64,000 bases of DNA from an uncultured Desulfobacterales bacterium (GTDB taxonomy: Bacteria; Desulfobacterota; Dissulfuribacteria; Dissulfuribacterales; S140-46). Of the stretch, positions 10,097 through 62,927 are shown one piece after another (position 1 is the first letter of the stretch; every line of letters begins with the position of its first letter). The notes under the pieces were generated by a model. That model was not told where the DNA came from and did no database searches. It was given only the letters and a program-made list of their open reading frames with translations. The stretch covers positions 20,279 through 84,278 of the forward strand of contig CAZUIH010000001.1 of NCBI GenBank assembly GCA_964620365.1, written 5' to 3'. The translations under genes were made by a program, and so were the position numbers.

Positions 10097-10118
10097 GGTA
10101 GGCCAACATAAAACAAGA

Positions 10119-10484: not shown

Positions 10485-10551
10485 GAATCACCTCGCCTGG
10501 TTTTATCAGCATAATTCCCTATTATGATACCACTCCAATGCAATATCTAGT

Positions 10552-11559: not shown

Positions 11560-11568
11560 ATCTTATCC

Positions 11569-30954: not shown

Positions 30955-31464
30955 ATGGATGAGATGCAATCTTTTCAGCAAACCAAGGGATTACAGACAG
31001 TAATCTTTCATATAAATAACCGTCCTTTTTGCATTGAACTTTCGTTTATTAGGGAGGTTGTCACCCTTTCTGGGCTGAAAAGCATTCCAAATGCCACACC
31101 CCATGTGGCAGGAGTGATTAATATCAGAGGAGAAGTAATTCCAGTTTTTAACATTGAGTCTATACTCCTTGGTCCATCTAACCAGGCAGCTTCGACCATT
31201 CCCTATAAGCAGAAAATACTTTTGATAAATTTTGGGACAACAAACGCCGGACTAATAGTTCACTCGGTATCCCGAGTGGCTTCACTTTCGTTGGACGGAA
31301 ATGATGATGAAAAAGCCTCGAAACAGGGGTATCAAAATCAATTCCTTAAAACTGTACTTAAAAGTGATGATGAAGAACTGATTCCTCTGGTTGATATTCC
31401 CAAGCTAATGGCCAGGTTAGAAAGAATCAATAGCTCGATACAGGCAACTGCCCAAAAGTATTAG
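30955..31464 (+). CDS. cheW: Chemotaxis coupling protein CheW
   Basis: CheW-like domain (FCIELSFIREVVTLSGLKSIPNATPHVAGVINIRGEVIPVFNI; AGLIVHSVSRV). 169 aa. Confidence 0.9.
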   Translation: MDEMQSFQQTKGLQTVIFHINNRPFCIELSFIREVVTLSGLKSIPNATPHVAGVINIRGEVIPVFNIESILLGPSNQAASTIPYKQKILLINFGTTNAGLIVHSVSRVASLSLDGNDDEKASKQGYQNQFLKTVLKSDDEELIPLVDIPKLMARLERINSSIQATAQKY

Positions 31465-31479
31465 GACAGGAGGATATAT

Positions 31480-33858
31480 ATGAAAAGCGGAGCAGGAGGC
31501 ATACGAAATTGGCGGCTCAGAACCAAGGTCTTGGCCATGGTTGTCATAGTGCTTTTAATTGCGCTGTCAGCCCAGGTCTATATCTATTTCCAGCAGCAGA
31601 GATTGCTCCAAAAGGAGGGGATATTATTACTTGAGGCCCAAGCCTCTGCACTCGCGGACAAAATGTCCTTGATGTTGAAAGACAGGACGAATGAACTGGA
31701 ATGGTTAGGAAACATAGAATCAGTCAGGAATGTCGTTACAACAGGAGAAAGCCAACAGAATGTAAACAAAATTCTCTCTCAACTTGTCAGAAAAACAGGA
31801 ATTTACCAATCTGTAATAATTACTGACCGTCATGGGCGTATAGCCGCTGGCAGTGACGCAAGGCTGGTGGGTAACAAAATCAAAAATGATGTCTGGTTTC
31901 AACCAGCCAGACTTGTTGAGACATATATCTATGGCCCTTTGTCATCCCCCGCTTCAACAGATAAAAGTGTCTTAAGCTTTGCCATAATTTCTCCCATCAG
32001 AAAAAATGAGGCCACAATAGGTACGGCCATCGGTTTTATACCGTTGGAGGATCTTAAGGGGCTATTGACCACGGCAAAAAAATTTGTGACAAAGATGGGA
32101 GGCGAGACCTACTTCACAGATAAATCAGGCAAGATCATTTTGCATTCTGACAACAATAGAGTTGGCGCGACCTCCATTATAAAAGGACAGTTGGACATTG
32201 CTTCTCCTGTGCAGGGAGTGATTTCTTTCAATAATCCAAGGGATGGTAAATCCACATTTGCAGCTTTACAAACAGTGCCAACTTCCGGACAGATAAATAG
32301 TTCCCAGTGGATTGCAGTGGTCCAGGGACCTAAGGCAGCTCTTTCTTCAGCACTTATTCCTTTACTCAGGCACCAGCTAGGGGCCAATGCCATTGTGTTT
32401 ATTTTCCTGCTGGCACTTGCTTACTTCTTGAATCGGGACGTTGTAAAACCAATTTCGGAAGCTGCCACTCTCCTGGGCAGGACGGCCAGAAACCTTGATC
32501 TGACGGAAAGATTGACAATAAGAAGCAATGATGAAGTAGGCCAGATGTCAGAAGCAGTTAACAAGTTCCTCAATACACTCCAGGACACCTTCAATGATGC
32601 TGTAAATGCCACATCCAGCTTTGCAAAATCTAGCCGGGACATCCATAGCGTAGCTCAAAAAATCGTGGAAAATGCCTCTGCTCAGGCCGAGAGGGCCCGC
32701 AATGTCGTACAACGTATATCGGTCATGGGCCAGACTGCCGCGGAGGTAGCCGCTCACGCTGAATCTTCAGCAAAACTGGCACGGGAAGCCGCCGATGTCA
32801 TAGCGGATATGTCCAACACCAGCGACAAGATCAATGAAATTTCCCAGCAGAACAAAGAAAGAGCGGAAGGGGCGGCTCAAACCGTAGTTGATATGGGTGT
32901 AACAGCCAAAGAGGTCCAATCAAGAGCTGTAGCCCAGTCGGAGGCTGCCAGCAAGACAGCGGAATCACTCCACAAAATGGCTGAACAATTGCAGGATATG
33001 GCCTCTAAGGCCCAGAATGCAGCAAAACAGGCACAACGGGCCATGGAAGATGCCCAGACGGGAAGCAAGGCCATGGCCATGACAGTTCAGGGTATGGAAG
33101 CCATTGCCCAAAGCTCGGATCAGGTAAAAGATATTGTAGACCTGATATCTGATATTGCAGAACAGACCAACCTCCTGGCTCTAAATGCGGCAATTGAGGC
33201 GGCGAGGGCAGGTGATCATGGAAGAGGTTTTGCAGTAGTTGCGGAAGAAATCAGAAAGCTTGCAGAAAGGACCAGTGAATCCACAAAAGAGATCGAAGCC
33301 CTTATTAAAGAGAGTACTGAAAACGTCCAAGAGGGAATGAAGCTCACCAAGCAGACCGCGGCTGCATTTGAAAACATAGTCGACACCATCGAAACCAGTG
33401 GTAAGGTTACCATTAATATTGCTGAGGTATCCTCCAAACAGGCTAAAGATACCCAGGGTCTTGTTTCTACAACTGATGAACTGAAAAATCTGGCCGGGAA
33501 TATCGTGGAGATGACAAATCAACAGGCAATTCGCCGTCAAAGGGCTGAAGAAGCAATCAAGCAGCTCATGAAACTCAGTGAAGAGATTACATCCGCTGCG
33601 AATTCAACCAGCCTTACCACCAAAACAGCCTCCGAGACGGTAGCTCATGTCGTTGAAAACTCTACGGAAATTACAAGCCGAACATCCAAGCAAAGAGAAC
33701 GGAGTGCCGCCCTTCAGGCACTCATGAACGAGATGGCAGAAGTAGCAGTACAAAACGCCCAAGGGGCCCAAGGGGCGCTGGCAGCCATGGAAGATCTTAT
33801 GGCAAAGGCCCATGAACTTGAACAAGAAATTAAAAGATTCAAGGTTTCAGCCATATAG
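31480..33858 (+). CDS. Methyl-accepting chemotaxis protein (Cache-like periplasmic sensor, HAMP, long signalling domain)
   Basis: Two TMs flank a sensor region of about 260 aa. Signalling hairpin tip [38 protein letters not shown]. No C-terminal NWETF-type pentapeptide. GGAGG RBS. Confidence 0.95.
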
Positions 33859-33977: not shown

Positions 33978-34011
33978 AAAAAAGGCGAGGCTATATGCCT
34001 CGCCCTTTTTT
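33978..34011. terminator. Bidirectional rho-independent terminator between mcp (+) and the ATPase gene (-)
   Basis: AAAAAA-GGCGAGGC-TATAT-GCCTCGCC-C-TTTTTT. A perfect 8-bp GC-rich stem has an A-run on one side and a T-run on the other, so it fits both strands. Confidence 0.7.
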
Positions 34012-34020
34012 AATCCTTGA

Positions 34021-36357
34021 TTATCTGACACAGGCAGCCCTTACCTGTTTTAGATCCGTGTCTCCCTGCAAGATCTTATGAATACCATCCTGTTTCAGTG
34101 TGAGCATCCCGGCTCCCATGGCATGCTTTTGTATCTCACTAACAGGACTCCTCTTTTGAATAAGATCTCTCATTGCATCATCACAGACCAACAATTCATG
34201 AATTGCAAGACGGCCCTTATAGCCTGTCCTATTGCAAAATTCGCATCCATTAGGCTTATACAAGGTCAGATTATTGTAAGCGTCAAGATCAAGGGGAATT
34301 GAGGGATGTGCACCATACTCGTAAAGAAGTAATTTTTTCTCCTCTTCATCAGGACTATACGCAACCTTACACTTGGGACACAGACGTTTTACAAGGCGTT
34401 GGGCCAAAACACCCAAAAGGGCATCGGCAAAATTAAACGGATCTATTCCCATGCCAAGCAGACGGGTTACTGTCTCTGGCGCAGAGTTCGTATGAAGTGT
34501 AGAAAACACAAGATGTCCAGTTAAAGATGCCTCTATGACTGTATGAGCCGTTTCTTCGTCTCTGGTTTCTCCAACCATTATTATATCAGGGTCCGCTCTC
34601 AAAAAGGCCCTCAACACCCTGGCAAAAGTCAGGCCTATGGAAGGCTTAACCTGTACCTGTCTCAATCCATCCTGGACTATTTCCACTGGATCTTCCGCTG
34701 TCCAAATCTTTTTTTCAGGCCTATTTATGTACCCCAAAGCAGCATGAAGAGTAGTGGTCTTTCCAGAACCTGTAGGTCCTACTACGAAGATAAGCCCATA
34801 AGGCATTTCTATAAGCTTTTTTAATCTTTCCAGATTGCGTTCCGACAGTCCTATCTTGTCCAAGGGCATTGCATCGGTCGCAGCAAGAATCCTGAGGACT
34901 ATATCTTCATTCCCCTCCGTTGTTGGCAGTGTTGCAACTCGAAGTTCTATAGTCCTTCCTCTCCTGGTTTTGAACTTTATCTTACCATCTTGAGGAAGCC
35001 GTTTCTCAGCAATATCCAGGTTTGCCATAATCTTGATCCTGGATATCAAGGCCCGTTTATAATTATACGGAATAGTCTGATACCGCATACAATCCCCATC
35101 AATTCTGAAACGGACCAGCGCGCCCCGCTTACCGGTCAAGGACTCAATATGAATATCCGACGCCTGACGTACGTACGCGTCTTCAATTATCTTGTTCGCC
35201 AGCTGTACTACTACACTGTCGACATCCGAGGTAAGGTCTTCTTCCTCGTCAACCTCTTCCTCCTCCTCAACCAACTCCAGCTGCTCGAAAACATCTACGT
35301 CGGACTCTCCAAGGGAATATTTTCCAAAAAAATAATCAATGAATTTATCAATATCTTCTTTTAGGGATACAACAAAATGGAACTCTCCAGCCTTTAATAC
35401 TCGACGGATGTTATCGATCTTGATAAGATCATGGGGATTATCCACGGCGACATGGAGGACATCGCCTTCTTCTTTTACCGGAACACATGTATTTGTCCTA
35501 AAAAAATGTTCTTTTATGCCATGTATGCAGGAAGGGGTTGAGCCTACCTCTAATTCATTAAACTCAACAAATGGACAGCGATAATATTCACTGAGAGACC
35601 TGCCCAGTGCCATTTTTTCCACGCCAAACTTTGAAAGCAAAATACTTTCTATAGATTTTCTGCTCTGCTTGGCTATTTCACGGGCTTGTTCCAGTTCTTC
35701 TTCTGTAATATGGCCTTCAATGATCAGATTATAAAATCTTCCATACTTTTGAGCCGTCTTGGTAAGATCATCGAGTCTTTGAGCAGCATTTCTAAACCCT
35801 CTGTCAATTTTTATAATCTGCTCCAGTGCCTCGATTGCTCGTGGAACAGCACCTGTCTTTTCGTGGGCGATCGCAAGCTGATAAAATATATTCAGCCGCA
35901 CCTCCTGGGAAACATTCGGATCTTTCAGGGCCTCTTCAAAGGCCTCTACTGCCTCAAAGGGCATATCAAGCCTAAGATAACACTCCCCAATCTTTGCATT
36001 GACTTCACCGACCCTGAAGCCTTTATCCAACAAAACCTTAAACTCATCTATGGCCTCAGAATGGAACCCGGCCTCCATGAGGCCAAGACAATTATTAAAT
36101 CTCTTTTCATTGGATTCTTCCTCTGACTCTTCGGCTGTCTGTGCCCCCAAGCCGATCTGCCTATCTACGCCCTCGATGCGTTTAAGGTTCTCTTCGATTT
36201 TGGCCTTTAATGGATGATCCTTTCCATTCAAATAGGCCAAAATCTCCTTGTATATTTGACAGGCCTCTTCATTTAATCCCTGATTAACATAAAGCTCCGC
36301 TTCTTGGAACTTGGCGTCTAGAGATATTTCGGAAACAACCTGCAGGTCAGACATCAT
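34021..36357 (-). CDS. PilB/GspE/MshE-family secretion-type ATPase with N-terminal TPR extension
   Basis: N-terminal TPR-like helices of about 220 aa. Then a T2SSE_N-like region (FYNLIIEGHITEEELEQAREIAKQ...). Then Walker A VGPTGSGKTTTL, Asp box/Walker B (ADPDIIMVGETRDEETA), His box (TGHLVFSTLHTN) and a tetracysteine CPKC...CEFC. Confidence 0.9.
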   Translation of the reverse strand: MMSDLQVVSEISLDAKFQEAELYVNQGLNEEACQIYKEILAYLNGKDHPLKAKIEENLKRIEGVDRQIGLGAQTAEESEEESNEKRFNNCLGLMEAGFHSEAIDEFKVLLDKGFRVGEVNAKIGECYLRLDMPFEAVEAFEEALKDPNVSQEVRLNIFYQLAIAHEKTGAVPRAIEALEQIIKIDRGFRNAAQRLDDLTKTAQKYGRFYNLIIEGHITEEELEQAREIAKQSRKSIESILLSKFGVEKMALGRSLSEYYRCPFVEFNELEVGSTPSCIHGIKEHFFRTNTCVPVKEEGDVLHVAVDNPHDLIKIDNIRRVLKAGEFHFVVSLKEDIDKFIDYFFGKYSLGESDVDVFEQLELVEEEEEVDEEEDLTSDVDSVVVQLANKIIEDAYVRQASDIHIESLTGKRGALVRFRIDGDCMRYQTIPYNYKRALISRIKIMANLDIAEKRLPQDGKIKFKTRRGRTIELRVATLPTTEGNEDIVLRILAATDAMPLDKIGLSERNLERLKKLIEMPYGLIFVVGPTGSGKTTTLHAALGYINRPEKKIWTAEDPVEIVQDGLRQVQVKPSIGLTFARVLRAFLRADPDIIMVGETRDEETAHTVIEASLTGHLVFSTLHTNSAPETVTRLLGMGIDPFNFADALLGVLAQRLVKRLCPKCKVAYSPDEEEKKLLLYEYGAHPSIPLDLDAYNNLTLYKPNGCEFCNRTGYKGRLAIHELLVCDDAMRDLIQKRSPVSEIQKHAMGAGMLTLKQDGIHKILQGDTDLKQVRAACVR

Positions 36358-37982
36358 CCATTACCTGTCAAACTCTCCAGAGTAGCCACCGGAATGGCTC
36401 CATTGCTACCCTTCAAAAACCCTTTCCATACATCCGAGTCTTTCCCAGGTTCCCAAGACCAATCATCAGGAATGGATACGGTCCTTGGCTGTTCATCCAC
36501 AAAAAGCACACATCCGCGATCTCCTGAATAAAGTACCAACATTGTAGACTCAGAGTTATTTTCATTAAAGATTGATGAGGGTTCAGGACTCGAAATTACT
36601 GGCAGTTCAAGCCCTTTCAATTCTTCTTCTGTAAGACCAGACAACTCTCCAACAAATAAGGGTCTTAATTTTGACCATGGCCATTTCTTTAATTTTTTCA
36701 AAGGGAACGTCGACTTTCCTTTAAACTCACTAAGATTCAACCTAGTGGTACCGATAAATCCTATCTCCTCAGGCAAAAAACCAACTTCCCTGCCCTCCCA
36801 TCGGGCCAACGCAAGCTCTTTCCAGGGACTTTTCTGTTCAGTCTTTTCCGGAATATCTCCTTCCGCCTCAAAAAATCTGGTATACACCGGTGGAGTAAAT
36901 GACTTCCCCCCCAAAACATCTAACAAGACCCCTTTTTGCTCCTCCAGTCTAGTCCTCAGGCCGACATGAAATCGATACAGTTTTTCCAGTCCCCTGGTCT
37001 TTTTCAAAAGCGATTCCACTGGCCGGAGATTTTCAATACAATCATCAAGAACCGCTACATGAAAATTCACCGCAGAAATAAGGGACTCTGCGATCTTCTC
37101 TCCAGGCCCTGATTGTTCCGTTTTCGCATCTTCCTCGAAAGGTGTGTCGCTGACAGCCTCAACCACTTCTTTAGGTTCCACGATCCCTTGTGAAGAGACC
37201 TCCTCCAACTCAACAGAAGCGGGCTCAACATCCTTTACTTCGTCAGGTTGCAGTTCAAGCTCCATGTCCAGATATTCAGAAGCCAAACTTTCCTGCTGAT
37301 CTCCTGCTTCCTCTTCGGATAGATAAGAAGCGGTTTTTTCTAACTGCTGAAGGCCCTCTAATTCCACAATCGCATCTTCGAGAGATTGTTTCTTGCCAAT
37401 CAACACCCCATTTTCACCGCTCTGAAGACCTATTACTGCCTCTACAACCTTCTGCAAAACCTTTGGCGCAGTGGTAGGGACGGATTCCGGATCTTCGGCC
37501 AGTTTAGACAAGGTCTTCCTCATCAGACTCAATACCTTGTCTCCATCAACCCCTTCTATCAGCTTGAATTCAGACGCGACTCCTTCCAAGAGGTCCTTTG
37601 CAGCATGTATATTGTCCCTGTTGACCTCCCATTCTAGGGTTAAAAGCGCCTGGTAGAGCTGATTAAATCTATGGATTCTATTTTCCTCTGTTTCGTTTAC
37701 CTGCTTAACCTCTTCTTCATCAAAATCCAGATCCAAGTCCAGTTCGAGGTCTCCACCAGGAGATACATCTGGCTTTGGAGTAGTCTCTGACGTATCCTGA
37801 TCCCCTTCACCAAAATCCAGGCCTAAGGGTGCCTCCACTTCTTCAGTTTGAGACAGTTCCTTTATTTCATTTGTCAAGGGATCAATCTCAATCTGTTTTG
37901 CAGGAGCAAACAAATCTTCTATTGTATCTTCAATCTCTTTTGTAAACTGTTCAGGATCAGGCTGGTTGTTGGTCTGCTCCAT
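36354..37982 (-). CDS. Hypothetical highly acidic protein; the C-terminal roughly 170 aa may be a divergent CheW-like domain
   Basis: 542-aa ORF with a good RBS (AAGGAGAG). Translationally coupled to the downstream ATPase gene by a 4-nt overlap. The N-terminal two-thirds is D/E-rich and low complexity. The C-terminus (ELALARWEGREVGFLPEEIGFI...MLVLYSGDRGCVLFVDEQPRTVSIP...WKGFLKGSNGAIPVATLESL) recalls the CheW/P5 pattern. No confident family assignment. Confidence 0.7.
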   Translation of the reverse strand: MEQTNNQPDPEQFTKEIEDTIEDLFAPAKQIEIDPLTNEIKELSQTEEVEAPLGLDFGEGDQDTSETTPKPDVSPGGDLELDLDLDFDEEEVKQVNETEENRIHRFNQLYQALLTLEWEVNRDNIHAAKDLLEGVASEFKLIEGVDGDKVLSLMRKTLSKLAEDPESVPTTAPKVLQKVVEAVIGLQSGENGVLIGKKQSLEDAIVELEGLQQLEKTASYLSEEEAGDQQESLASEYLDMELELQPDEVKDVEPASVELEEVSSQGIVEPKEVVEAVSDTPFEEDAKTEQSGPGEKIAESLISAVNFHVAVLDDCIENLRPVESLLKKTRGLEKLYRFHVGLRTRLEEQKGVLLDVLGGKSFTPPVYTRFFEAEGDIPEKTEQKSPWKELALARWEGREVGFLPEEIGFIGTTRLNLSEFKGKSTFPLKKLKKWPWSKLRPLFVGELSGLTEEELKGLELPVISSPEPSSIFNENNSESTMLVLYSGDRGCVLFVDEQPRTVSIPDDWSWEPGKDSDVWKGFLKGSNGAIPVATLESLTGNG

Positions 37983-38040
37983 AACAACTCTCTCCTTGAG
38001 ATTTTTTTACGCTAAAACCATGGGTGCCGATTTTGCCACC

Positions 38041-38673
38041 CTACATGCTTCCTGCCTTTCGACTCGGCATCAAATGCTTCGATGCCACGTGTCTGACAGT
38101 CCTCTTGCTTATCTCCTTTAAGGTCTCAAAAACGCCAATTCCCTTGATTGCTGCTGCTCCAAAGGCCTTGGTCCTGAGTTCTTTGTTAAGATCAGCCTCC
38201 AACTCTTCTATGGTAAGGGTTGGAATGGAGGTCTGGACCAAATCTCGTTTATTATATTGCAGGACAATTGGTATTTCGTGTAGCGAGATATTGTAATCCA
38301 AGAGATTACGCCTAAGATCTTCCAGACTCTCAATATTTTTGGCCTGCCTTACCTTCAACGAATCCGCTACGAATACTAGACCATCCACCCCTTTTAAAAC
38401 CAACTTTCTGGTTGCTTCATAAATCGCCTGTCCTGGTACCGTGTATAACTGAATCCTTATGTCAAATCCGCTGACTTTTCCCAGACTTAATGGAAGAAGA
38501 TCAAAAAAAAGGGTACGGTCTCCCTTTGTTTCTATAGTGAGCATCTTGCCCCGGGCGGCATTGCCCATGGCATTATATATGTAGAGAAGGTTAGTTGTCT
38601 TTCCACATCTACCTGGACCATAGTAGACGATCTTACAGTGAATTTCCTTTTTACTCAGATCAATTAGGGCCAT
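38041..38673 (-). CDS. mglA: Ras-like small GTPase MglA
   Basis: Near-colinear with Myxococcus MglA from memory: KIVYYGPGRCGKTTNL, DRTLFFDLLPLSLG, LYTVPGQ (Thr replaces the G3 Asp, an MglA hallmark), LKGVDGLVFVADS and QYNKRDL. Confidence 0.93.
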   Translation of the reverse strand: MALIDLSKKEIHCKIVYYGPGRCGKTTNLLYIYNAMGNAARGKMLTIETKGDRTLFFDLLPLSLGKVSGFDIRIQLYTVPGQAIYEATRKLVLKGVDGLVFVADSLKVRQAKNIESLEDLRRNLLDYNISLHEIPIVLQYNKRDLVQTSIPTLTIEELEADLNKELRTKAFGAAAIKGIGVFETLKEISKRTVRHVASKHLMPSRKAGSM

Positions 38674-38675
38674 AT

Positions 38676-39077
38676 CTACGCTTCTATGCCAAAGGTTTCC
38701 GCTATTGTCTTCGCCAGTTGGGCCACTCGCAGTCTTACAAGCCCAAGAGATACATCATCGCCAAAAATGGTTACGAGTATAAAATGCTCTCCAATCCTGG
38801 AAAAATGAATGCTGTCCTTCTTTCCTTTATGAAACAGGAGAGAAAAATCATCTTCTCCTATGAGTCTTGCTATCTGAGATGTAGCTCCAAAATTTGCTGC
38901 TGCCAATGCTGCCAATGAGGTGGCATCCACCCTGCCTTGGTCTTTGCCACAATTTGCCACTATGTTGCCAGCCTCATCAATCAAGAGCACCATATGAACT
39001 CCTGCACTTATCAGGATCTCCTCAATCTGATTCTTAGTCTTTTCAAGCACTGAGGCACTTAGCACTAAATCCGCCAT
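38676..39077 (-). CDS. mglB: Roadblock/LC7-domain protein MglB (MglA GAP)
   Basis: Roadblock fold sequence resembling MglB (VLLIDEAGNIV, TSLAALAAANFGA, LIGEDDF, SLGLVRLRV). Lies 2 nt upstream of mglA. AAGGAG RBS. Confidence 0.9.
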   Translation of the reverse strand: MADLVLSASVLEKTKNQIEEILISAGVHMVLLIDEAGNIVANCGKDQGRVDATSLAALAAANFGATSQIARLIGEDDFSLLFHKGKKDSIHFSRIGEHFILVTIFGDDVSLGLVRLRVAQLAKTIAETFGIEA

Positions 39078-39222
39078 CCTTGTAACTCCTTAAAATAGGC
39101 TTTTATTAGCAAAACGACCTGTCATGTCGCAACAAGAATAAGATCCTGCCTGCATAATCCTATATCGACTCTTTCAAAAAAAATATTAAAGAATGTTTAA
39201 AAAGAAAAAGTAGCTAGTATCT

Positions 39223-39249
39223 TAAGTTTTTGGGTATGATGGTCGATAA
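39223..39249 (+). promoter_or_regulatory. Sigma-28-type promoter candidate upstream of the HDOD-cheB-like-cheY-cheA operon
   Basis: TAAGTTTT-N11-GTCGATAA. The -10 element matches GCCGATAA 7/8. The -35 element matches 6/8, or 7/8 with a 12-nt spacer. About 130 nt upstream of the HDOD ATG. Confidence 0.35.
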
Positions 39250-39378
39250 TGCAGGAAGAAGTAATTGTATGGACGCTTTTATCCCATGGTGAATCACCAA
39301 GATATACTTAAGGCCCATATAGAAATGCATTTTAAACCGGGATATTAACCAACGTATCTAAGGAAAACTCAAAGAAAT

Positions 39379-40227
39379 ATGCCTGTTTCAATCGCCCAGC
39401 GACTTGACAACATAGAAGACCTTCCCACGATTCCTCACACTCTGCATCAGGTATTAACCAGTCTTGACAAGGTTTCATCCTCGGCTCAAACCCTTGAAGC
39501 TATAATAAGGGAAGATCCAGTACTTACAGCCAAGATACTCAAGATGGCCAATTCTCCCTATTATGGACTGCCAGGGGAGATATCCAGCATTGCCAGGGCG
39601 GTAGTAATCCTTGGCTTTGAAGAGGTAAAAAATTTGGTCATAGGTCTGTCACTTACTGGCGCCTTCACAGGAAACCTGGGTATAAAGGAATTTGACTCAA
39701 AAGGCATCTGGTTACACTCGGTAGCCGTTGCCATAACATCAAAGATTCTTGCTGACTCAGTCTCGGAAGTTGACCCAGATGAACTTTTTACCGCCGGACT
39801 TATCCACGACATCGGCCGCCTACTAATGTGCCTCTACTTCCCCAAGGAGCTTAGAGAGATACTGGATCTCCAACAGAGAGAAAACATACCTCTTGCAGTA
39901 GCTGAAGAGCGTTACGGTCTTACACATGGTGAAATCGGGGCATATCTTACCCAAAAATGGCAGCTCAGTGACATGCTGGTCAATGTGGTAAGGTATCATC
40001 ATCATCCCCAGGGTGCAGGCCCCTATATAAAGGCCGCCTCAATAATATTTCTTGCAGATGAAATATGCCACAAATTGAAAATAGGTTGGAGCTTCGATTA
40101 CGGGGAAAAAAAGATTCTGGTACCCAAGTCCTTGGGACTTAACGCAGAAACCATAAAAAAAGTAGCGCAGCGAATCAAAAAGGAAAAAGAAAAAATCGAA
40201 GCCGGCTGGCTAGAAATGATAAAATAG
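39379..40227 (+). CDS. HDOD domain protein
   Basis: HDOD-like sequence (LPTIPHTLHQVL, DPVLTAKILKMANSPYYG, AVVILGFEEVKNL, GLIHDIGRLL, HGEIGAYL). Confidence 0.9.
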   Translation: MPVSIAQRLDNIEDLPTIPHTLHQVLTSLDKVSSSAQTLEAIIREDPVLTAKILKMANSPYYGLPGEISSIARAVVILGFEEVKNLVIGLSLTGAFTGNLGIKEFDSKGIWLHSVAVAITSKILADSVSEVDPDELFTAGLIHDIGRLLMCLYFPKELREILDLQQRENIPLAVAEERYGLTHGEIGAYLTQKWQLSDMLVNVVRYHHHPQGAGPYIKAASIIFLADEICHKLKIGWSFDYGEKKILVPKSLGLNAETIKKVAQRIKKEKEKIEAGWLEMIK

Positions 40228-40235: not shown

Positions 40236-41312
40236 ATGGAGGTAAAAGGGGTGAAATCTCAAGGACGACGCATCAAAACCCTTGTAGTAGATGATACCGC
40301 TTTCATGAGGAAGGCCCTGGTAGATATCCTTTCAATGGATGAGGAAGTCGAAGTTGTGGGTGTGGCGAGGCATGGAAAGGAAGCTCTTCAGGCCATTGAA
40401 ATACTAAAGCCTGACGTAGTAACCTTGGATGTGGACATGCCTGTAATGGATGGACTGACTGCTATAAAACATATTATGATCCGCAGCCCTCGACCAGTCA
40501 TAATGGTAAGCGGACTGGCAGGCCAGGGAACCGTAACCCTGGAGGCCTTAAGACTCGGTGCAATAGACTTTTTTCCCAAACCATCTGGAACCATTTCCCT
40601 TGATATTCACGAACAGGCCGATGAACTGAATAACATTGTTAAGCAGGCCGCCCAGATTAATCCTTGGGCCTTACAAAGGGCTAGACTGCCCTTGGCCAAC
40701 AAGCAGCCCAGGCATACCTCAGACAATCCTATGGGAATCTTGATGATAGGGGCTCACAGGGGTACATGCACAAGCCTTATACGACTACTAGGGAACATCA
40801 ATCCCCAGTTACCATTAACAATAATCGCCGTCCAGGACATCTCCTGCCAGGTCCTAGACTCGTATGCCCAGGAACTTAACAAGGTGATTCCATGGCATGT
40901 CTCCGTCAACAGGCACAAAAGCAAACTGTATCCAGGCCACTGTATTTTAGCTAGCTATGGGCAACCATGGTCCATCAGGAAAAACTCATCAGGCCACCTA
41001 GAGCTAATCGCGGAGAAACAAGGTTCTCTTGATGATCTATTCGCCCAAACGGCTTTAATATTGGGAAATCGCTCACTGGGTGTCATCCTCGGCGGGACCT
41101 CCCGGGAAGGAATCAAAGGTCTCAAGACATTAAGGGAAAAGGGGGGGACATCACTTGTCCTTGCTCCTCAGGCGTGCATTTACAAGGATGCAGCAGAGAC
41201 GGCCCTTAGGGAACAGGCAGCTAAAGCTGTTGCCTCGGAAAAGGAACTCTGGTCTAGAATTGAGGCCTTTGGCCGACAGCTTGTACTGAAGGCCGCGTGC
41301 AATCAAGCATAA
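40236..41312 (+). CDS. Response-regulator receiver fused to a CheB-methylesterase-like domain with a degenerate catalytic triad
   Basis: REC looks intact (VVDDTAF, TLDVDMPVMDG, FFPKP). At the CheB triad positions (Ser164/His190/Asp286 of enteric CheB) I read IGAHRGT, AVQDIS and GGTSREG by eye, so Ser, His and Asp are all replaced. Confidence 0.85.
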   Translation: MEVKGVKSQGRRIKTLVVDDTAFMRKALVDILSMDEEVEVVGVARHGKEALQAIEILKPDVVTLDVDMPVMDGLTAIKHIMIRSPRPVIMVSGLAGQGTVTLEALRLGAIDFFPKPSGTISLDIHEQADELNNIVKQAAQINPWALQRARLPLANKQPRHTSDNPMGILMIGAHRGTCTSLIRLLGNINPQLPLTIIAVQDISCQVLDSYAQELNKVIPWHVSVNRHKSKLYPGHCILASYGQPWSIRKNSSGHLELIAEKQGSLDDLFAQTALILGNRSLGVILGGTSREGIKGLKTLREKGGTSLVLAPQACIYKDAAETALREQAAKAVASEKELWSRIEAFGRQLVLKAACNQA

Positions 41313-41482
41313 CCAGGCCTCTAAAGAGGCTGTCTTTTCTAAAACAAACAGGAGACAAAAAACGATTCTCAGTGGAGTTACACAAACATACTTCACAGAC
41401 GGACAAAGCAACTAAGGCAGAAGACATAGTATTTCAGGAGTGCATTATTTCTAATCACAACATAGATCTTGGGAGAAGATTA

Positions 41483-42580
41483 ATGGGGAACGGCGTCCAA
41501 CCTTCGCTGAAACAAGAGCAACAAGAAACAGTGAAAGTTTTTATCATCGACGATTCTCAGTTGATGTGTAAGGTATTGGAAAAAGTCTTGGCAGAAGATC
41601 CGGGAATAGAAATTGCCGGCCATGCATTGAATGGGCAGGAGGCCTTGCGAAACCTCAGGTCTATGCGGTGTGATGTGTGCACTTTGGATGTTCATATGCC
41701 AGGCATGAATGGTCTAAGCGTGCTAAAACACATAATGATTCAGTGTCCATTGCCTACACTTATGGTTAGCGCCTTTACCGCAGACGGTTCCAGGGTGACA
41801 TTCGAGGCACTTAGATATGGCGCAGTCGATTTTTTCCAGAAGCCTGCAAGGGACAAAGGAGAAGACATTCAATCCCAGGCGGAAATGTTACGGGCCAAGG
41901 TAAAAAGGGCGGCCAGGGTGCAGGTTGGTGCGGCCAGATACCTTCGCCTGCGTCCTGTCGCGTCATCCACCACAAAAACAGCGAACAGAACCGAATCTGC
42001 CACCATTTCAAATATTACAATAATAACTGCGTCCACAGGAGGCTATTCCAGTCTCTTGTCTCTTCTCCCGATGATGCAATATCCGCCAAAGGCACCTGTT
42101 ATTGTATCCCTTGGAACAGCGACTCAATTCATGGATCCATTCATAGACTATCTTAGCTCTTTTGTGTCCTTTCCTGTCATACGGGCAAAAAACGGTATGC
42201 AATTGAAAAATGGAACGGTTTTTTTTATAAGCGGTAATGAGTCGGCAACTCTTGAAAAAAACGGAGATAAAATCGAGCTTATCATATCTCCTCGCCCAGA
42301 CATGTTTGATCTTGAAGGAGGGGTTGACCTGCTCATGTTTTCAGCCAGTGAACTTTTTGGAGAGGACACGGTTGGCATATTTCTTTCTGGAGACAGGCCA
42401 GAAGGACTGTCTGGTGCCAGGGAAATTGTGCGAAACAAGGGCAAAATAATTGTACAAAGGCCTGAAACATGTTTGTCCCCTGACCAACCACTCCGCATCT
42501 TTACAGAGGTTGGAGCAGAATCGCTGGGCCTGTCCGAACTAGCCCAGAACCTTTCTTCTAGTGAAAGGTCACAATCTTGA
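41483..42580 (+). CDS. Response-regulator receiver fused to a CheB-like domain (Ser motif kept, His and Asp positions not conserved)
   Basis: REC looks intact (IIDDSQL, TLDVHMPGMNG, FFQKP). The CheB-like domain has TASTGG but VSLGTATQF where QHMP is expected, and SGDRPEG where GMGxDG is expected. I chose the ATG at 41483, preceded by GGGAGAAG. The ORF track extends to a GTG at 41297. Confidence 0.8.
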   Translation: MGNGVQPSLKQEQQETVKVFIIDDSQLMCKVLEKVLAEDPGIEIAGHALNGQEALRNLRSMRCDVCTLDVHMPGMNGLSVLKHIMIQCPLPTLMVSAFTADGSRVTFEALRYGAVDFFQKPARDKGEDIQSQAEMLRAKVKRAARVQVGAARYLRLRPVASSTTKTANRTESATISNITIITASTGGYSSLLSLLPMMQYPPKAPVIVSLGTATQFMDPFIDYLSSFVSFPVIRAKNGMQLKNGTVFFISGNESATLEKNGDKIELIISPRPDMFDLEGGVDLLMFSASELFGEDTVGIFLSGDRPEGLSGAREIVRNKGKIIVQRPETCLSPDQPLRIFTEVGAESLGLSELAQNLSSSERSQS

Positions 42581-42611: not shown

Positions 42612-44036
42612 ATGAACTCTATAGACCATCCACAACATCCATTTTCCAGTGAAACGCCACCTAAGGACTTTAACGGTTTCATGGAAGAAATAGCCCTCGG
42701 AGACCTGGTCCAGCTGGCCTGTCTTGAAGGCAGTGATCGTGTACTCAAGGTTTCAGGGGAAACCGTAGAAGGAGAAATATACTTTTCCAACGGTGAAATT
42801 GTTCATGCGGTATCCTCTCGAAACGAAGGTGAAAAAGCCTTTTTTGAAATTATGAGGATGAGCAGAGGCACCTTTTTCTTTTCCAAAGGGCGACCTCCCA
42901 AAACAACTATAAGCGTACCCTGGAATTTCCTTCTTATTGAGGCCTCACGTCAAATAGATGAAGGCGACGAAAAGAATGAAAAAGGACTTGAAAAAAAACC
43001 TACTGTTCTGATCGTGGATGATTCTAGGGTGGCGTGCAAGTCTCTGCGGGAGTGCATAAAGGAAAAATTCAACATAGAAAACATACTGGAGGCCTCCAAC
43101 GGACGACAAGCAATTGATGCCATGGAGAAAGAAAAACCAGGCCTTGTCACCCTTGACATGAACATGCCGATAATGGCAGGCGACGTAACCCTTAAGCACA
43201 TAATGATACGCTCGCCAGCACCGGTGGTGCTAATAAGCGGCATTGACCCCCAAAATTTCCCCAGGATCATGGACTTTTTGCGTCTTGGCGCTGTGGATTT
43301 TATCCCCAAGCCTCTTGGAGACATGGAGTGGGATAACGGTGCTGAACGACTGGGTAGACATATTGAAAAAGCAAGTAGTCTGATGGTCCAAAATATACGC
43401 AGGGCCAAGCTGGCCAAACCGGTTGATTCTAAAATTACTCCATCAGGCCATGCCAAAAGAATTGCCATCTTTGTAGGAGGAGCTGGAGGGCTTCTTGAAC
43501 TCCAAAAAATTGTACCGGCCCTTTCACCTGATGAACATCTGTGTATTGTCATATTTCAGGACATGGCGGATGAAATAGTATCTCCTGTATCTCAATATCT
43601 AGATAAATTCTTTTCAGGTAATGTGTCTCCTCTTAGAGACGAAGCAGAACTTTTATCCGGACTCTGCCTGATTTCCAACTGGGGAAAGAACTGGGACATA
43701 AGAGGGGATAAACCTGGCAGACTTTCGCTATACCCTGCCGAAGACCATGGACTTGATCTTGAACAGTTTCTGGGTTCCGTTGCCAAAAACTTTGGTCCCA
43801 GCAGCGCGCTTTTTGTCCTTAGTGGCGCAGATCTGGAGCTGGAGAAGGGAGTAGAGAAAATGTCAGCCATGGGAGGTCGAATACTTCTTCAAGATCCTGA
43901 AACGTGTCTGGACCCAAATCCTGTTTTGAGATTACAGAGAATCGAAATGGAAGATGGGACCTTTGAGCCTGAAAAAATTATCGAGTCATTCAATGCCTGG
44001 CTCGAAGCTACCGATACGATATTAGCAGATTCATGA
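42612..44036 (+). CDS. PATAN/DUF4388 domain + receiver + degenerate CheB-like domain protein
   Basis: N-terminal LGDLVQLACLEGSDRVLKVSGETVEGEIYFSNGEIVHAV...GEKAFFEIMRMSRGTFFF fits the DUF4388/PATAN pattern. REC looks intact (IVDDSRV, TLDMNMPIMAG, FIPKP). The CheB-like C-terminus has VGGAGG (no Ser) and IFQDM (His to Asp). Confidence 0.8.
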   Translation: MNSIDHPQHPFSSETPPKDFNGFMEEIALGDLVQLACLEGSDRVLKVSGETVEGEIYFSNGEIVHAVSSRNEGEKAFFEIMRMSRGTFFFSKGRPPKTTISVPWNFLLIEASRQIDEGDEKNEKGLEKKPTVLIVDDSRVACKSLRECIKEKFNIENILEASNGRQAIDAMEKEKPGLVTLDMNMPIMAGDVTLKHIMIRSPAPVVLISGIDPQNFPRIMDFLRLGAVDFIPKPLGDMEWDNGAERLGRHIEKASSLMVQNIRRAKLAKPVDSKITPSGHAKRIAIFVGGAGGLLELQKIVPALSPDEHLCIVIFQDMADEIVSPVSQYLDKFFSGNVSPLRDEAELLSGLCLISNWGKNWDIRGDKPGRLSLYPAEDHGLDLEQFLGSVAKNFGPSSALFVLSGADLELEKGVEKMSAMGGRILLQDPETCLDPNPVLRLQRIEMEDGTFEPEKIIESFNAWLEATDTILADS

Positions 44037-44079: not shown

Positions 44080-44424
44080 GTGGCAAGAGTTCTTATAGTC
44101 GATGATTCCAGCTTTATGAGAAAGCGCATTGCCCAGGCCCTTATAGAGAATGGCCATGAGGTCATTGGACAGGCAAAAGACGGGCTAGAGGGATTCACGG
44201 TTTATAAAGAAACCAAACCAGATGTTGTTGTAATGGACATCACTATGCGGGGCACAGACGGTATCTCAGGGGCGCAGCTTATTCGGGATTACGATCCCGA
44301 TGCAAGGATCATATTCATGAGTCTGATTGCAGATCCTGATGTAATTGCCAAAGCCAAGGCCCTTGGGGCAGAAGGTTTCCTAGGCAAAAAGGACTATGAT
44401 AGACTTTTGGCACTATTAAAATGA
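44080..44424 (+). CDS. cheY: Chemotaxis response regulator CheY
   Basis: VLIVDDSSFMR, VVMDITMRGTDG and a conserved K (LGKKD). 114 aa with a GTG start and a GGAGA RBS. Confidence 0.9.
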   Translation: MARVLIVDDSSFMRKRIAQALIENGHEVIGQAKDGLEGFTVYKETKPDVVVMDITMRGTDGISGAQLIRDYDPDARIIFMSLIADPDVIAKAKALGAEGFLGKKDYDRLLALLK

Positions 44425-44525: not shown

Positions 44526-47252
44526 GTGGGTTGTATCATGAGTCAGATAGATAAAGAGATGTGGCAGGATTTTGTGGTCGAAGCCAACGAGAACCTTGAG
44601 GAGCTCGAACCCAATCTTTTGTTATTGGAAAATGATCCCAAGAACATTTCACTTCTCAACGATTGTTTCAGGAATATGCACTCCATTAAGGGCGCTGCAG
44701 GCTACATGGGGCTTGAAGCTATATCGAGTCTGGCACATAGCGTTGAAAACCTCTTTGACAAGGTAAGACAGGGAGAGCTCTCGCTTTCTCCAGAAGACAT
44801 CAACCTGATTTTTGCAGCTATCGACAGGATAAGAGCCCTAATAAAAGAGGTATCTGAATCGAATCAGGAAAAATCCCAGGTAGAGGATCTTCTTAAAAAA
44901 ATTGATGATCTCATCTCCACAAGATCAGGCAACTTATCGGAGGGGGCGAATACTTCCGTTCAACCATCCAGGATTCAGGCTCAGTCAGACACCGATGGGG
45001 GGGAAACCGGTATTCAGAATCAGGACGAAGATCTAGAACTCATGGAGATTTTTGCTGAAGAAATAAAGAGTTTGTATCAACAGCTCCAACAGTTGACCCA
45101 CGCCCATCCAATTGCCAAGGACGCCCTGCTCACCGTGCTGAATAACATTGAAAGGGTAACAAACTATATAGGGTTGGATGAACTTCTTGAAGAGATTGTT
45201 TCCATAAAAGGACGTATCGATAAAGAAGAGGACAATACCCTTGACGCCGATAAGGTTCGGGAACTCATCAAAGAAACAGGAAAAGTGCTGGAACGCCATA
45301 TACCTTCATTCAGCATGATGGAAGAAAATCAGGACCGTGGCGAATTAGGCCTTGAAGAAGATGAAGAGCTTTACAAAATTTTCCTGGACTTCGTAAAAGA
45401 AAATTCCGGCCCTCTGGCCAACACCCCCACCACCCCTGATGAAACATGGCTTAAGGAATGTCAGGAATCAGTTGAAAAGCTAAAGACATCTGCCCATTAC
45501 ATGGATTATCCAGACATCGTGGCCCTTTTTGAGGAATGGGGAGAAAGGCTGGCAGAATCTCTGTCAAAATATCACGAAGAAAAAAAATTCGATCCAGGGC
45601 CCTTCAAGGAGCTTTGGACAAGACTTGTGGAACGTCTACCTGAACTTGGCTCAATTGAGCCTACGCCCCTTAAAGAAGACCTGATAGAAGAAGAATTCGA
45701 AGCCATAGGAGAAGAACCAATAGTTGAAAATCTTGAATCCGCTATAGACCAACTGTTTGACAACCAGGACCTGTTCGGCGAAGGAACCGATCCAGATAAC
45801 CTTCCCTTCCCAACCGAAATCGACACTGCTTTGGAACAGGCAGAATCTGTTCAGTCAACACAGCATGAAAACACGGCCGCTGCCCCATCAGCCTCAGAGC
45901 AGATAGCTGATTCAGAACCTCAAGAACAGTTAGAAAAACCCTCCGCCCCCCCATCACAAACAGTCCGCATAGATCTCGACCGGGTCGAGCACCTGTTAAG
46001 AGACGTTGGAGAACTTGTCGTACTGCGCTCTGGCCTCACCCAGGCGGCGGAAGAGATGAAGGCCACCTATAAGGAATGGATGGAAAAGAGGCTTCTGGAT
46101 ACCAAGCATCTCAAGAGATTCAAGGATGCCATGATCCGTTTGAACGAACAGGCAGCAGCCCTTGGGAGAGTTGTACACAACTTACAGGATGGCGTCATGA
46201 GAATGAGGATGCTGCCTGTTAGAAACCTCTTCAATCGTTATCCCAGGATGATCCGTGATCTTTGTCAGAAACTCGACAAAAAAGTCAATTTAAATGTCAT
46301 CGGTGCGGAAACTGCCCTTGATAAACGGGTCATTGAAGAAATGGCGGATCCTATGCTCCATATTATCAGAAATGCCATTGATCATGGTATAGAACCCCCT
46401 GATACCAGAGAAAAACTAGGCAAACCGGCAACCGGCACGCTTACTCTTTCAGCAAGCCAAGAGGGCAACTACGTTGTAATCAAGGTAAAGGATGATGGAA
46501 AAGGGCTGGACAGGGAAGGCATCATCAGACGTGCGGTAAGTCTCGGGCTCATTGGAAGGGAAGAGGCCCAGACACTTCCCGATGAAAAAGTATGGGAATT
46601 GATATTCCTGCCAGGCATAACCACTGCGGAAAGTGTCTCCGAGACCTCCGGTCGAGGAGTGGGCATGGATGTGGTCAAAAGGAACGTTGAAAAGCTGGGG
46701 GGCGTAATGAAAATCCGCTCGGTTCCCGGCAGAGAGACCGAAATAACAGTCCGAATCCCGCTGACCCTGGCTATCATCCCGACTCTTCTTACCCGTGTTG
46801 GACATCAGGTGATGGCTATTCCAATTTCCGCTGTCCAGGAGACATTCAGGATACGGTCTGATGAAATCAGTACTGTAGAAGGTTTTGAGATTATATCCCT
46901 GAGACAGGATACTCTTCCACTAATAAGATTAAGCCGTATTTTCCGGGGAACAGGTGCTGATGAGAACCCGGAAAAACTTTTTGTAGTGAGGATCAAACAG
47001 GGTGAAGTGGAAGCCGGCCTTGCTGTTGATGGATTTATTGGGCAGCAGGAGGTGGTTATCAAGCCTCTTGCTGAATATCTTACGGATCAACCTGGATTTT
47101 CCGGCGCTACTATCCTGGGAGACGGTTCTATCGCCCTAATTTTGGATATCCCTGTGATGCTGGACAAAGCAAAAAAATTCACAGTGAAGAGACAACAGCT
47201 ATTGGAAAAATCAGCCCTTGAGTTTGAAGAAATAAGCAACACGATCCATTGA
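44526..47252 (+). CDS. cheA: Chemotaxis histidine kinase CheA with an extended multi-Hpt-like N-terminal region
   Basis: Hpt (FRNMHSIKGAAGYMGL), a long acidic linker with two further Hpt-like helical segments, a dimerisation domain, HATPase_c (HIIRNAIDHGIE, DDGKGLD, SGRGVGMDVV) and a C-terminal CheW-like P5. An alternative ATG start lies at 44538. Confidence 0.95.
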   Translation: MGCIMSQIDKEMWQDFVVEANENLEELEPNLLLLENDPKNISLLNDCFRNMHSIKGAAGYMGLEAISSLAHSVENLFDKVRQGELSLSPEDINLIFAAIDRIRALIKEVSESNQEKSQVEDLLKKIDDLISTRSGNLSEGANTSVQPSRIQAQSDTDGGETGIQNQDEDLELMEIFAEEIKSLYQQLQQLTHAHPIAKDALLTVLNNIERVTNYIGLDELLEEIVSIKGRIDKEEDNTLDADKVRELIKETGKVLERHIPSFSMMEENQDRGELGLEEDEELYKIFLDFVKENSGPLANTPTTPDETWLKECQESVEKLKTSAHYMDYPDIVALFEEWGERLAESLSKYHEEKKFDPGPFKELWTRLVERLPELGSIEPTPLKEDLIEEEFEAIGEEPIVENLESAIDQLFDNQDLFGEGTDPDNLPFPTEIDTALEQAESVQSTQHENTAAAPSASEQIADSEPQEQLEKPSAPPSQTVRIDLDRVEHLLRDVGELVVLRSGLTQAAEEMKATYKEWMEKRLLDTKHLKRFKDAMIRLNEQAAALGRVVHNLQDGVMRMRMLPVRNLFNRYPRMIRDLCQKLDKKVNLNVIGAETALDKRVIEEMADPMLHIIRNAIDHGIEPPDTREKLGKPATGTLTLSASQEGNYVVIKVKDDGKGLDREGIIRRAVSLGLIGREEAQTLPDEKVWELIFLPGITTAESVSETSGRGVGMDVVKRNVEKLGGVMKIRSVPGRETEITVRIPLTLAIIPTLLTRVGHQVMAIPISAVQETFRIRSDEISTVEGFEIISLRQDTLPLIRLSRIFRGTGADENPEKLFVVRIKQGEVEAGLAVDGFIGQQEVVIKPLAEYLTDQPGFSGATILGDGSIALILDIPVMLDKAKKFTVKRQQLLEKSALEFEEISNTIH

Positions 47253-53772: not shown

Positions 53773-53776
53773 TTGC

Positions 53777-60516: not shown

Positions 60517-60523
60517 GATCTTG

Positions 60524-61747: not shown

Positions 61748-61915
61748 TTTCCCCTCCCTGATTTTTTTGTTCTATTTTCCCAAGTTTTGGGCGTTTGAGT
61801 TATCAGGCCCATTTCCCGGTGTCAAGTCAAAAGATTACGCTATAGATGTAATCATTTCCTATAAAGAGGATGATATTTTTTCAGAAGTTGTAGCTGGGAA
61901 GAGGAAAAGGATTTT

Positions 61916-62872: not shown

Positions 62873-62927
62873 TTTGCAATCTCTTTCAAAGCATAGATAT
62901 GGTTAGGCCTAAATCCAATCTGCATAG

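Follow-up and report, generated by a model that had tools for sequence, protein, structure and literature searches.

In Myxococcus xanthus, the GTP-bound form of the small GTPase MglA binds the C-terminal tetratricopeptide repeats (TPRs) of SgmX, a protein needed for polar PilB and for PilB-dependent pili (PMC7668184, PMC7519303). In Bdellovibrio bacteriovorus, MglA and the TPR protein Bd2492 bind each other in a 1:1 ratio (PMC3983030). The kinase MasK, encoded beside mglBA in M. xanthus, also binds MglA and affects pilus-dependent motility (PMC3546991). In Synechocystis, PATAN domains bind the extension ATPase PilB1 and PilC (bioRxiv 10.1101/2021.06.11.447907). PATAN genes near mglA and mglB had already been noted in a 2014 survey of prokaryotic small GTPases, which found no conserved neighbourhood for MglAs of groups 1, 4, and 5 beyond an occasional PATAN gene (PMC4316618). 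The operon described here, mglB-mglA-X-TPR::ATPase, occupies positions 34021-39077 of a 64,000-nucleotide stretch, called the window, of contig CAZUIH010000001.1 from an uncultured Desulfobacterales bacterium. It encodes an MglB, an MglA, an acidic protein designated X, and a PilB-type hexameric ATPase headed by a TPR module. The evidence presented below gives an even chance that the four genes form one output cassette, which would translate the switch state of the GTPase into local recruitment or activation of the ATPase.

All four genes lie on the minus strand. The mglB gene (38676-39077, 133 aa) is separated by 2 nt from mglA (38041-38673, 210 aa), whose product contains IQLYTVPGQ, and mglA by 58 nt from the gene for X (36354-37982, 542 aa). 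The TPR::ATPase gene (34021-36357, 778 aa) overlaps the end of X by 4 nt (ATGA), through which the two are probably translationally coupled. An AAGGAG ribosome-binding site precedes X, and a consensus scan found no terminator between mglA and X. A preliminary description of this DNA had reported four tightly packed co-directional genes encoding a Roadblock MglB, an MglA with LYTVPGQ, a 542-aa D/E-rich protein, and a 778-aa ATPase. Its coordinates and gap sizes were all correct, and open reading frames (ORFs) and domain searches agree with the identities it assigned.

The arrangement recurs in some fifty Thermodesulfobacteriota species. A search with the X motifs against one genome per species (GTDB) recovered 54 loci, which belong to Thermodesulfobacteriota wherever the taxonomy is informative, a few being labelled "uncultured bacterium" or "Pseudomonadota bacterium". 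SEEP-SRB2, Dissulfuribacterales, Thermodesulfatator, Desulfobulbia, Desulfobacterales, and isolate M19 are represented among them. In 42 fetched loci all four genes stand on one strand and in identical order, the remainder being contig fragments, and the arrangement is thus not due to chance. The preliminary description had left room for an order conserved in no relative, which these complete cassettes contradict. Identity to the window proteins across the loci is 68-85% for MglA, 52-77% for MglB, 51-71% for the ATPase, and 25-36% for X. A search starting from the ATPase returned more than 120 clusters at 61-72% identity with TPR, MshEN, and T2SSE domains; the cassette was present in three of the four ATPase neighbourhoods examined, and 9 further ATPase/X pairs were found on contigs of equal size. 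Neighbour conservation was assessed by all-against-all clustering of every flanking ORF, up to 10 kb, in the 40-50 loci with usable flanks. This clustering placed mglB directly upstream of mglA in 46 loci and found no universally conserved neighbour beyond the four genes.

By its sequence, the window GTPase is a genuine MglA-family member of the Ras superfamily. It matches M. xanthus MglA in the PDB with an E-value of 3.3e-62 and 55% identity, and it has the P-loop GxxxxGKT, the arginine finger R53, the TVPGQ motif with Thr78 and Gln82, and the NKxD motif. Residues G19, G21, K25, T26, R53, T54, T78, G81, Q82, N141, K142, and D144 are conserved in 48 of 48 cassette MglAs. MglB, the presumed GTPase-activating protein (GAP) of MglA, matches the Pfam Robl_LC7 family (2.6e-15, 56 bits, cut-off 23) and M. 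xanthus MglB in the PDB (1.1e-21). The C-terminal helix seen in the M. xanthus protein is missing, and the score against the NCBIfam equivalog for Thermus-type MglB is 64 bits, below the cut-off of 200.

The ATPase is composed of three regions. Residues 1-205 (35743-36357, minus strand) form the N-terminal TPR adaptor, with a TPR-like hairpin, an acidic linker, and about three TPRs. Its Pfam matches fall within residues ~20-194 and exceed the cut-offs for TPR_2 (34.2 bits, cut-off 27) and TPR_6 (35.3 bits, cut-off 26.3), which settles a doubt raised in the preliminary description as to whether this region is TPR at all. Residues 206-345 (35323-35742) correspond to a PilB/MshE-type MshEN domain (Pfam 4e-13, 49.6 bits, matched over 259-345). 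After an acidic linker, residues 386-778 (34021-35202) make up the N2 domain and the C-terminal hexameric core (T2SSE 7.1e-122, matched over 380-772). From about residue 206 the protein aligns with full-length PilB, namely residues 3-557 of the M. xanthus protein (PDB 3jc8), Geobacter PilB, and Thermus PilF. A TPR extension of some 220 aa in front of a PilB/GspE-type core had been proposed before. The extension stands, at about 205 aa, while the core is of PilB/MshE type and not of GspE type: the GspL-binding N1E domain of GspE is missing, and the N-domain belongs to the MshEN type.

Conservation within the ATPase family points to a working enzyme. The hallmarks of PilB are all present: the MshEN N-domain, N2, and the C-domain with Walker A and B, Asp and His boxes, and the tetracysteine. 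An alignment of 47 homologues shows strict or nearly strict conservation of Walker A (GPTGSGKTTT), the Asp box (EDPVE), Walker B (DPDIIMVGETRD), the His box (TGHLVFSTLHTN), and RLPQDGK, with no substitution at any of the four cysteines. Mean column identity in this set is 0.57 for the TPR part versus 0.83 for the core. Since catalytic motifs are conserved to this degree, the cassette proteins appear to be under selection as active enzymes.

The MshEN domain invites another explanation, in which the ATPase would chiefly be a cyclic di-GMP (c-di-GMP) receptor of the MshE/PilB kind, with MglA and X as accessories and the cassette as a c-di-GMP output device. HDOD proteins encoded in the divergent operon fit this idea, as do the GGDEF genes in the window, the HD-GYP/MASE1 gene in locus L010, and the PilZ gene that directly follows the ATPase gene in L042. 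The c-di-GMP-binding motif of MshEN domains is a tandem 24-residue repeat, RLGxx(L/V/I)(L/V/I)xxG(L/V/I)(L/V/I)xxxxLxxxLxxQ. The first motif of the window ATPase reads GRFYNLIIEGHIT, in which a family-specific GRFYNL replaces the canonical RLGxxL(L) start, and the motif model NF053729 gives 17.4 bits against a cut-off of 38. Within GRFYNL (residues 206-211; 35725-35742, minus strand), every family member has G206 and L211, and the R-F-Y-N between them is conserved to more than 80%. Together with the strict conservation of all catalytic motifs, which indicates a working motor, this divergence makes a primary role as c-di-GMP receptor highly doubtful.

Protein X was characterized in the preliminary description as an acidic protein. 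Acidic it is (21% D+E, pI 4.35), yet it is no filler, as a conserved family and a predicted CheW-like fold attest. Judged from its homologues, X is a real, previously unnamed protein family. Full-length homologues fall into 31 clusters at 26-36% identity, every one annotated as hypothetical, and a profile search gave 367 matches at E<=1e-3, of which 83 at E<=1e-30. No stretch of X is hydrophobic enough to suggest a transmembrane segment. No Pfam or NCBIfam match was obtained for X, for 19 homologues (E<=10), or for 10 remote homologues. Invariant motifs in the family alignment are F..E..I..LF.....IEIDP.T.E near the N-terminus, LTLEWE, EKLY, and LKKWPWSK....G.L. X, the most constant partner of mglBA, may be regarded as the scaffold of the cassette.

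An AlphaFold2 model of X comprises an ordered N-terminal helix and hairpin, an acidic linker, a split helical bundle, and a beta-rich C-terminal domain. The N-terminal motif of the window protein, F..E.E.TI..LF.P...IEIDP.T.E (residues 10-43; 37854-37955, minus strand), is predicted as helix plus hairpin with a local confidence score (pLDDT) of 75-85 and is flanked by the acidic disordered linker. In the remote homologues P0240 and P0256, its core, (F/L)xxEI(D/E)xxI(D/E)xLFxP, occurs in at least two copies with acidic linkers between them. The setting in acidic disorder and the multiple copies in remote homologues suggest that the motif behaves as a short linear docking motif. The helical bundle (residues 95-360; 36903-37700, minus strand) carries LTLEWE and is modelled with pLDDT 80-92 outside an acidic disordered insert at residues 217-293. 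The C-terminal domain (residues 382-542; 36357-36839, minus strand) is predicted to be a CheW-like double beta-barrel, with a helical insertion that carries LKKWPWSK. In one Thermodesulfobacteriaceae metagenome-assembled genome (L053, 2650-6273), X is reduced to 179 aa with the N-terminal motif and part of the bundle and no CheW-like domain. No mglB ORF precedes mglA there, and the locus may be decaying or affected by an assembly problem.

The CheW/P5 fold of the C-terminal domain is supported by two models. Foldseek searches of the PDB with the full X model returned CheW or CheA-P5 structures in all of the top 14 positions. When the domain was predicted alone, using a deeper alignment that included remote relatives (pLDDT 84, predicted template-modelling score 0.80), the best 18 matches again came exclusively from CheW or CheA-P5 (E 1.4e-5 to 6.5e-3, TM 0.39-0.60, probability 0.99 or higher), and rank 19 dropped to E 0.3 and probability 0.03. 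The bundle shows a weak Foldseek likeness to CheA-P1/Hpt (1i5n; TM 0.64, E 0.5). A functional Hpt domain was considered and rejected in view of this E-value and of a family alignment that contains no invariant His; phosphotransfer by X is unlikely since no His is conserved. The bundle and the CheW/P5-like domain together resemble the skeleton of CheA without its kinase.

Distant relatives of X provide the key hint as to the role of the TPR module. Four of them (P0232, P0233, P0248, and P0260) were traced to contigs, and each directly follows a Roadblock gene and mglA, so that the X relatives traced always come after mglB-mglA. P0232, P0233, and P0248 share 16-17% identity with X (alignment A2), the adjacent MglAs are 59-67% identical to the window MglA, and the few named members of this subfamily are labelled as Syntrophobacteria or plainly as Deltaproteobacteria. 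A search with an alignment of remote X sequences (A3), aimed at MasA and MasB, gave 179 matches, the best 120 of which are all close relatives of the query. In three distant-X loci from Syntrophobacteria-like genomes the fourth gene encodes a Ser/Thr kinase with N-terminal TPRs instead of an ATPase, giving operons of the form mglB-mglA-X'-TPR::kinase (L059, 9757-11994; L060, 10302-12449; L061, 9772-11406). The first ~220 residues of the L059 and L060 kinases are colinear with residues 16-205 of the ATPase, at 27.5-28% identity over 200-215 aa and 65-68 bits (E-values 1e-16 and 1e-15); the third kinase aligns at 3e-6. The alignment begins at EAxLYxxQGLxxEA, passes through the acidic linker, and enters the three TPRs. 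At the level of these alignments, the likeness is beyond generic TPR similarity. A PATAN protein is encoded just downstream of the L059 and L060 operons on the opposite strand. The kinase operons as a group may be the counterpart of the MglA-MasK link of M. xanthus.

The same N-terminal module, in the same operon position, on two unrelated enzymes is most simply explained if it docks the effector to MglA and/or X. The module thus appears to be an operon-specific adaptor exchanged between effectors, which lends independent support to the earlier idea that the TPR part is an adaptor. A broader reading can be proposed tentatively, and it is possible rather than probable: MglB-MglA-X-[TPR::effector] would be a modular G-protein cassette, in which a Ras-like switch and the CheW-fold protein X plug a chemosensory array into either a motor ATPase or a Ser/Thr kinase through a shared TPR module. 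The ATPase version would then be a Rosetta-stone fusion.

Several observations weigh against one output cassette that acts on a pilus motor. The ATPase scores 511.9 bits against the PilB equivalog TIGR02538, below the cut-off of 675.65, and 496.7 bits against the GspE equivalog TIGR02533, below 630.25, with a model match that begins at residue 281. With these NCBIfam scores taken as a proxy for placement, the ATPase would be a paralogue, orthologous to neither PilB nor GspE by NCBI thresholds. Conserved pilin, PilC, PilM-Q, PilT, or secretin genes were not found near the cassette in the flanks of the 40-50 loci. Several loci, namely those of the L006, L008, L011, and L026 type and L049, have the cassette with no adjacent che or PATAN gene. 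As for X, none of the 19 family members matches PF01584 (CheW) at E<=10, and hhalign of the C-terminal domain against a small CheW/P5 alignment gives a probability of 20% in a register at odds with the fold, so that the CheW assignment comes from structure prediction. Residues 382-542 are accordingly modelled as having a CheW-like fold without being a member of the CheW family, the TM range given above indicating likeness at the fold level only.

The near-equal GspE and PilB scores (497 versus 512 bits) also speak for an explanation in which the cassette is the same and the machine is another. The ATPase would power a type II secretion system (T2SS)-like or non-motility type IV filament system, serving for instance in polar secretion or in building extracellular appendages, and MglA, MglB, and X would provide spatial control of secretion. 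In SEEP-SRB2 locus L010 (14173-17324, minus strand), the genes immediately convergent with the cassette encode a secretin and another MshEN-T2SSE ATPase, which scores 598 bits against the GspE model. In L061, a GspG major pseudopilin gene (6530-6955, plus strand; 175 bits, cut-off 88.85) lies directly upstream of mglB, and the Bdellovibrio MglA-TPR pair is tied to a TamAB secretion operon (PMC3983030). These T2SS-like neighbours are, however, lineage-specific and unconserved, and the architecture that follows the TPR module, aligned from PilB residue 3, is that of PilB/MshE and not of a GspE with its N1E domain. The linkage to PATAN and chemosensory genes is moreover typical of pilus motility control. 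Such a machine is considered unlikely.

A further explanation would reduce the operon to co-regulation. MglA, MglB, and X would have their effectors elsewhere, and the co-expressed TPR::ATPase or TPR::kinase would bind a polar landmark or a filament platform through its TPRs, whose ligands are known to be diverse. In M. xanthus itself, direct contact between SgmX and PilB was undetected, and its authors describe the mechanism as unknown (PMC11580455); this weighs against the output cassette as well. So does L062, where a 63%-identical TPR::ATPase homologue (10001-12412) stands apart from mglBA-X, with CarD and pseudouridine synthase genes upstream and an HDOD gene 3 kb off. It nevertheless keeps its N-region, with a faint TPR match only, and shows that the linkage is not universal. 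An N-module on two unrelated enzymes at the fourth position is nonetheless hard to explain without a partner inside the cassette. The 4-nt overlap with X suggests stoichiometric co-production, and MasK, which is encoded beside mglBA, does bind MglA (PMC3546991). Mere co-regulation seems quite improbable in the light of these points, and the output cassette is retained as the preferred reading.

Chemosensory genes are the principal recurring neighbours of the cassette. Upstream of mglB, an operon divergent from it begins with an HDOD gene (39379-40227, plus strand; 1.2e-59), found at the same position in 24 loci. It is followed on the plus strand by genes for three REC-CheB-like paralogues (40236-41312, 41297-42580, and 42612-44036; Response_reg and CheB_methylest, 57-87 bits), the third of which has an N-terminal PATAN/DUF4388 domain (6.7e-18). 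Next come a single-domain CheY-like response regulator of 114 aa (44080-44424), whose cluster occurs in 25 loci, with Response_reg at the equivalent position of L003, and a CheA histidine kinase of 908 aa (44526-47252) with Hpt, dimerisation, HATPase, and CheW-like P5 domains in Pfam, found in 21 loci. This divergent set, present in 21-25 loci or roughly two thirds of them, is the sole other recurring one. On the other side, a CheW gene (30955-31464) and a gene for a dCache-HAMP methyl-accepting chemotaxis protein (MCP; 31480-33858), both on the plus strand and assigned by Pfam, are convergent with the ATPase gene. This pair is adjacent in only three loci, the window, L024, and L052. The operon is therefore sandwiched between two chemosensory operons in the window, as had been described, and only the HDOD-to-CheA side of the sandwich is conserved.

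The REC-CheB-like trio, conserved in about 25 loci, has unusual features. The phosphorylation residues D10, D11, and D56 of the REC domain are conserved in all three paralogue families. Of the CheB triad Ser164-His190-Asp286, H190 is absent from all three, and S164 is restricted to paralogue 2, where 17 of 26 sequences have it. From these residues, the proteins are best read as phosphorylation-controlled, non-catalytic output proteins, i.e., predicted pseudo-methylesterases. No CheR is found among the annotated ORFs of the window. A PATAN gene lies within 10 kb of the cassette in 27 of the 36 loci with enough flank and is mostly the PATAN-REC-CheB-like gene. Desulfobulbia-like loci have a stand-alone PATAN protein just after the ATPase instead. 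In Desulfobacterota bacterium M19 (L042, 14211-15640, plus strand), a PilZ protein (121 aa) and then a stand-alone PATAN protein (337 aa) are encoded directly after the ATPase, an arrangement suggestive of input from c-di-GMP and PATAN in the absence of a CheA operon. In L010, the divergent genes encode an Hpt protein and a MASE1-HD-GYP protein, which replace the full che operon.

Taken together, these features allow a mechanism to be outlined for the output cassette. MglA would cycle between GTP and GDP with MglB as its GAP, as suggested by family membership and by catalytic residues that are all intact. The TPR module, taken as an adaptor because it is exchanged between ATPase and kinase, would be the docking element of the ATPase; its candidate partners are MglA-GTP, as for SgmX and Bd2492, the N-terminal motif of X, or both. 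X would serve as a scaffold whose CheW-fold domain docks a chemosensory array or another CheW/P5-binding partner, and its acidic linkers and N-terminal motif may tether other components. In most lineages the input might come from the divergent pathway, comprising MCP, CheW, CheA, CheY, the three REC-pseudo-CheB proteins, and HDOD. The CheA pathway could set the switch through the REC proteins, in a role comparable to that of Frz towards MglA/MglB and of PATAN regulators towards PilB1. The GTPase and the ATPase may also be connected through X or the PATAN regulators instead of by direct contact. The earlier proposal of a direct GTPase-to-motor-ATPase module is partly supported, with strong genomic grounds. 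Once activated, the ATPase would engage a type IV filament platform encoded elsewhere and so drive filament assembly at a defined place and time. A type IVa pilus machine is the first choice for this platform and the most likely one, given the PilB/MshE-like architecture after the TPRs. A T2SS-like platform is less likely, and the lineage-specific neighbours in L010 and L061 keep a role in secretion open.

The surroundings of the cassette are those of an ordinary chromosomal region. A GC-rich hairpin with an 8-bp stem (7 GC pairs) followed by CTTTTTT lies at 33984-34004 on the plus strand, in the convergent gap between the MCP and ATPase genes. The 301-nt divergent intergenic region between mglB and the HDOD gene (39078-39378) presumably holds the promoters of both operons, to judge from its geometry. 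The one weak sigma-70-like match there, on the minus strand (39293-39264), does not amount to evidence of function. The ORFs annotated in the window, which cover most of its 64 kb (58816-63647 excluded), include no gene for a pilin, PilC, PilMNOPQ, or a secretin, and the same caveat in the preliminary description holds over this range. A mobile or horizontally transferred island was considered and finds no support. The G+C content of the window is even, its housekeeping neighbours include mreBC, yidC, mnmE, dnaJ, thyX, cinA, rlmN, pfk, and lgt, and it contains no tRNA genes, which together indicate a chromosomal core location.

Other genes in the window also deserve mention. Several are related to c-di-GMP, such as a second HDOD gene overlapping a gene with a partial GGDEF match (52828-54643, minus strand; model positions 5-89 of 161, E 2.9e-13) and a REC-GGDEF response regulator gene (9107-10096, minus strand). 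An 829-aa protein (16425-18914, plus strand), for which Pfam gives only TPR-type repeats scattered over residues ~66-652, adjoins sugar epimerase and glycosyltransferase genes. It possibly belongs to an exopolysaccharide system and has no evident link to the cassette.

Full-text literature searches turned up no account of an mglBA operon with a TPR::PilB fusion, of family X, or of an adaptor swapped between ATPase and kinase; the preliminary description had likewise not recognised the module as described. A TPR element fused to a PilB-type ATPase within an mglBA operon offers a minimal system of three to four proteins in which the open question of how the GTPase reaches the pilus motor in Myxococcus can be addressed. 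If the modular-cassette reading is true, the ATPase fusion would show by what route GTPases of the MglA type gain access to the motor that extends pili. The TPR module on a kinase in the sister operons suggests that different effectors can be attached to a constant core of GTPase and scaffold, a design that would also help to make sense of the early finding that MasK binds MglA. With family X, the putative partners of MglA come to include a CheW-fold protein, which hints at a physical path by which chemoreceptor arrays could be linked to a small GTPase. The carriers include SEEP-SRB2 and other Thermodesulfobacteriota, in which surface appendages and their placement are worth studying. More broadly, the cassette may be one instance of a modular G-protein output device of general occurrence in bacteria.

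Among the known systems, the MglA-SgmX-PilB pathway of M. xanthus is the closest. Both have a bona fide MglA with a Roadblock GAP, both have a TPR element between the GTPase and a PilB-type ATPase, and both receive chemosensory input upstream, from Frz in M. xanthus and from CheA, CheY, and REC proteins here. They differ in that SgmX is a separate protein of ~1,000 aa with 14 TPRs, whereas the TPR element of the cassette spans ~205 aa and is fused to the ATPase. The M. xanthus genes are unlinked; here the ATPase gene belongs to the mglBA operon, and an additional CheW-fold protein, X, is obligatory. Homologues of RomR/RomX, FrzS, and SopA were not seen in the cassette, and its ATPase falls below the PilB equivalog cut-off. 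The masABK genes offer a parallel of another kind, with a kinase beside mglBA as in the mglB-mglA-X'-TPR::kinase operons. Unlike those operons, masABK is divergent from mglBA, and MasA and MasB have been described as membrane and lipoprotein components. The Bd2492 hub of Bdellovibrio is similar in that a small TPR protein binds MglA, links it to a polar machine, and has a c-di-GMP-related partner. Bd2492 is however free-standing and encoded with tamAB, and Bdellovibrio has neither MglB nor the ATPase fusion. In Synechocystis, as in the cassette neighbourhoods, a chemotaxis-like system is combined with a PATAN regulator, which there targets the extension ATPase through PATAN-REC proteins acting on PilB1/PilC (bioRxiv 10.1101/2021.06.11.447907; PMC11181946). 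The PATAN domain is here either fused to REC and a dead CheB-like domain or stand-alone, and the Synechocystis system has no described counterpart of MglA/MglB and X.

At the level of single proteins, the ATPase resembles PilB, MshE, and PilF (PDB 3jc8, 5tsg, 6f8l) in its MshEN, N2, and C-domains, its Walker A and B motifs, its Asp and His boxes, and its tetracysteine. It differs from them in its N-terminal TPR module, its degenerate c-di-GMP motif, and the lack of an adjacent pilC or pilT. Likewise, the predicted fold of X 382-542 matches only CheW and CheA-P5 structures. In contrast to these, the domain has no detectable sequence similarity to them, has a helical insertion with LKKWPWSK, and lies at the end of an acidic protein of 540 aa whose gene accompanies that of a GTPase and not that of an MCP or CheA. 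The building blocks are all of known kinds, and the novelty lies in how they are wired, in their fusion, in family X, and in an effector that can be exchanged.

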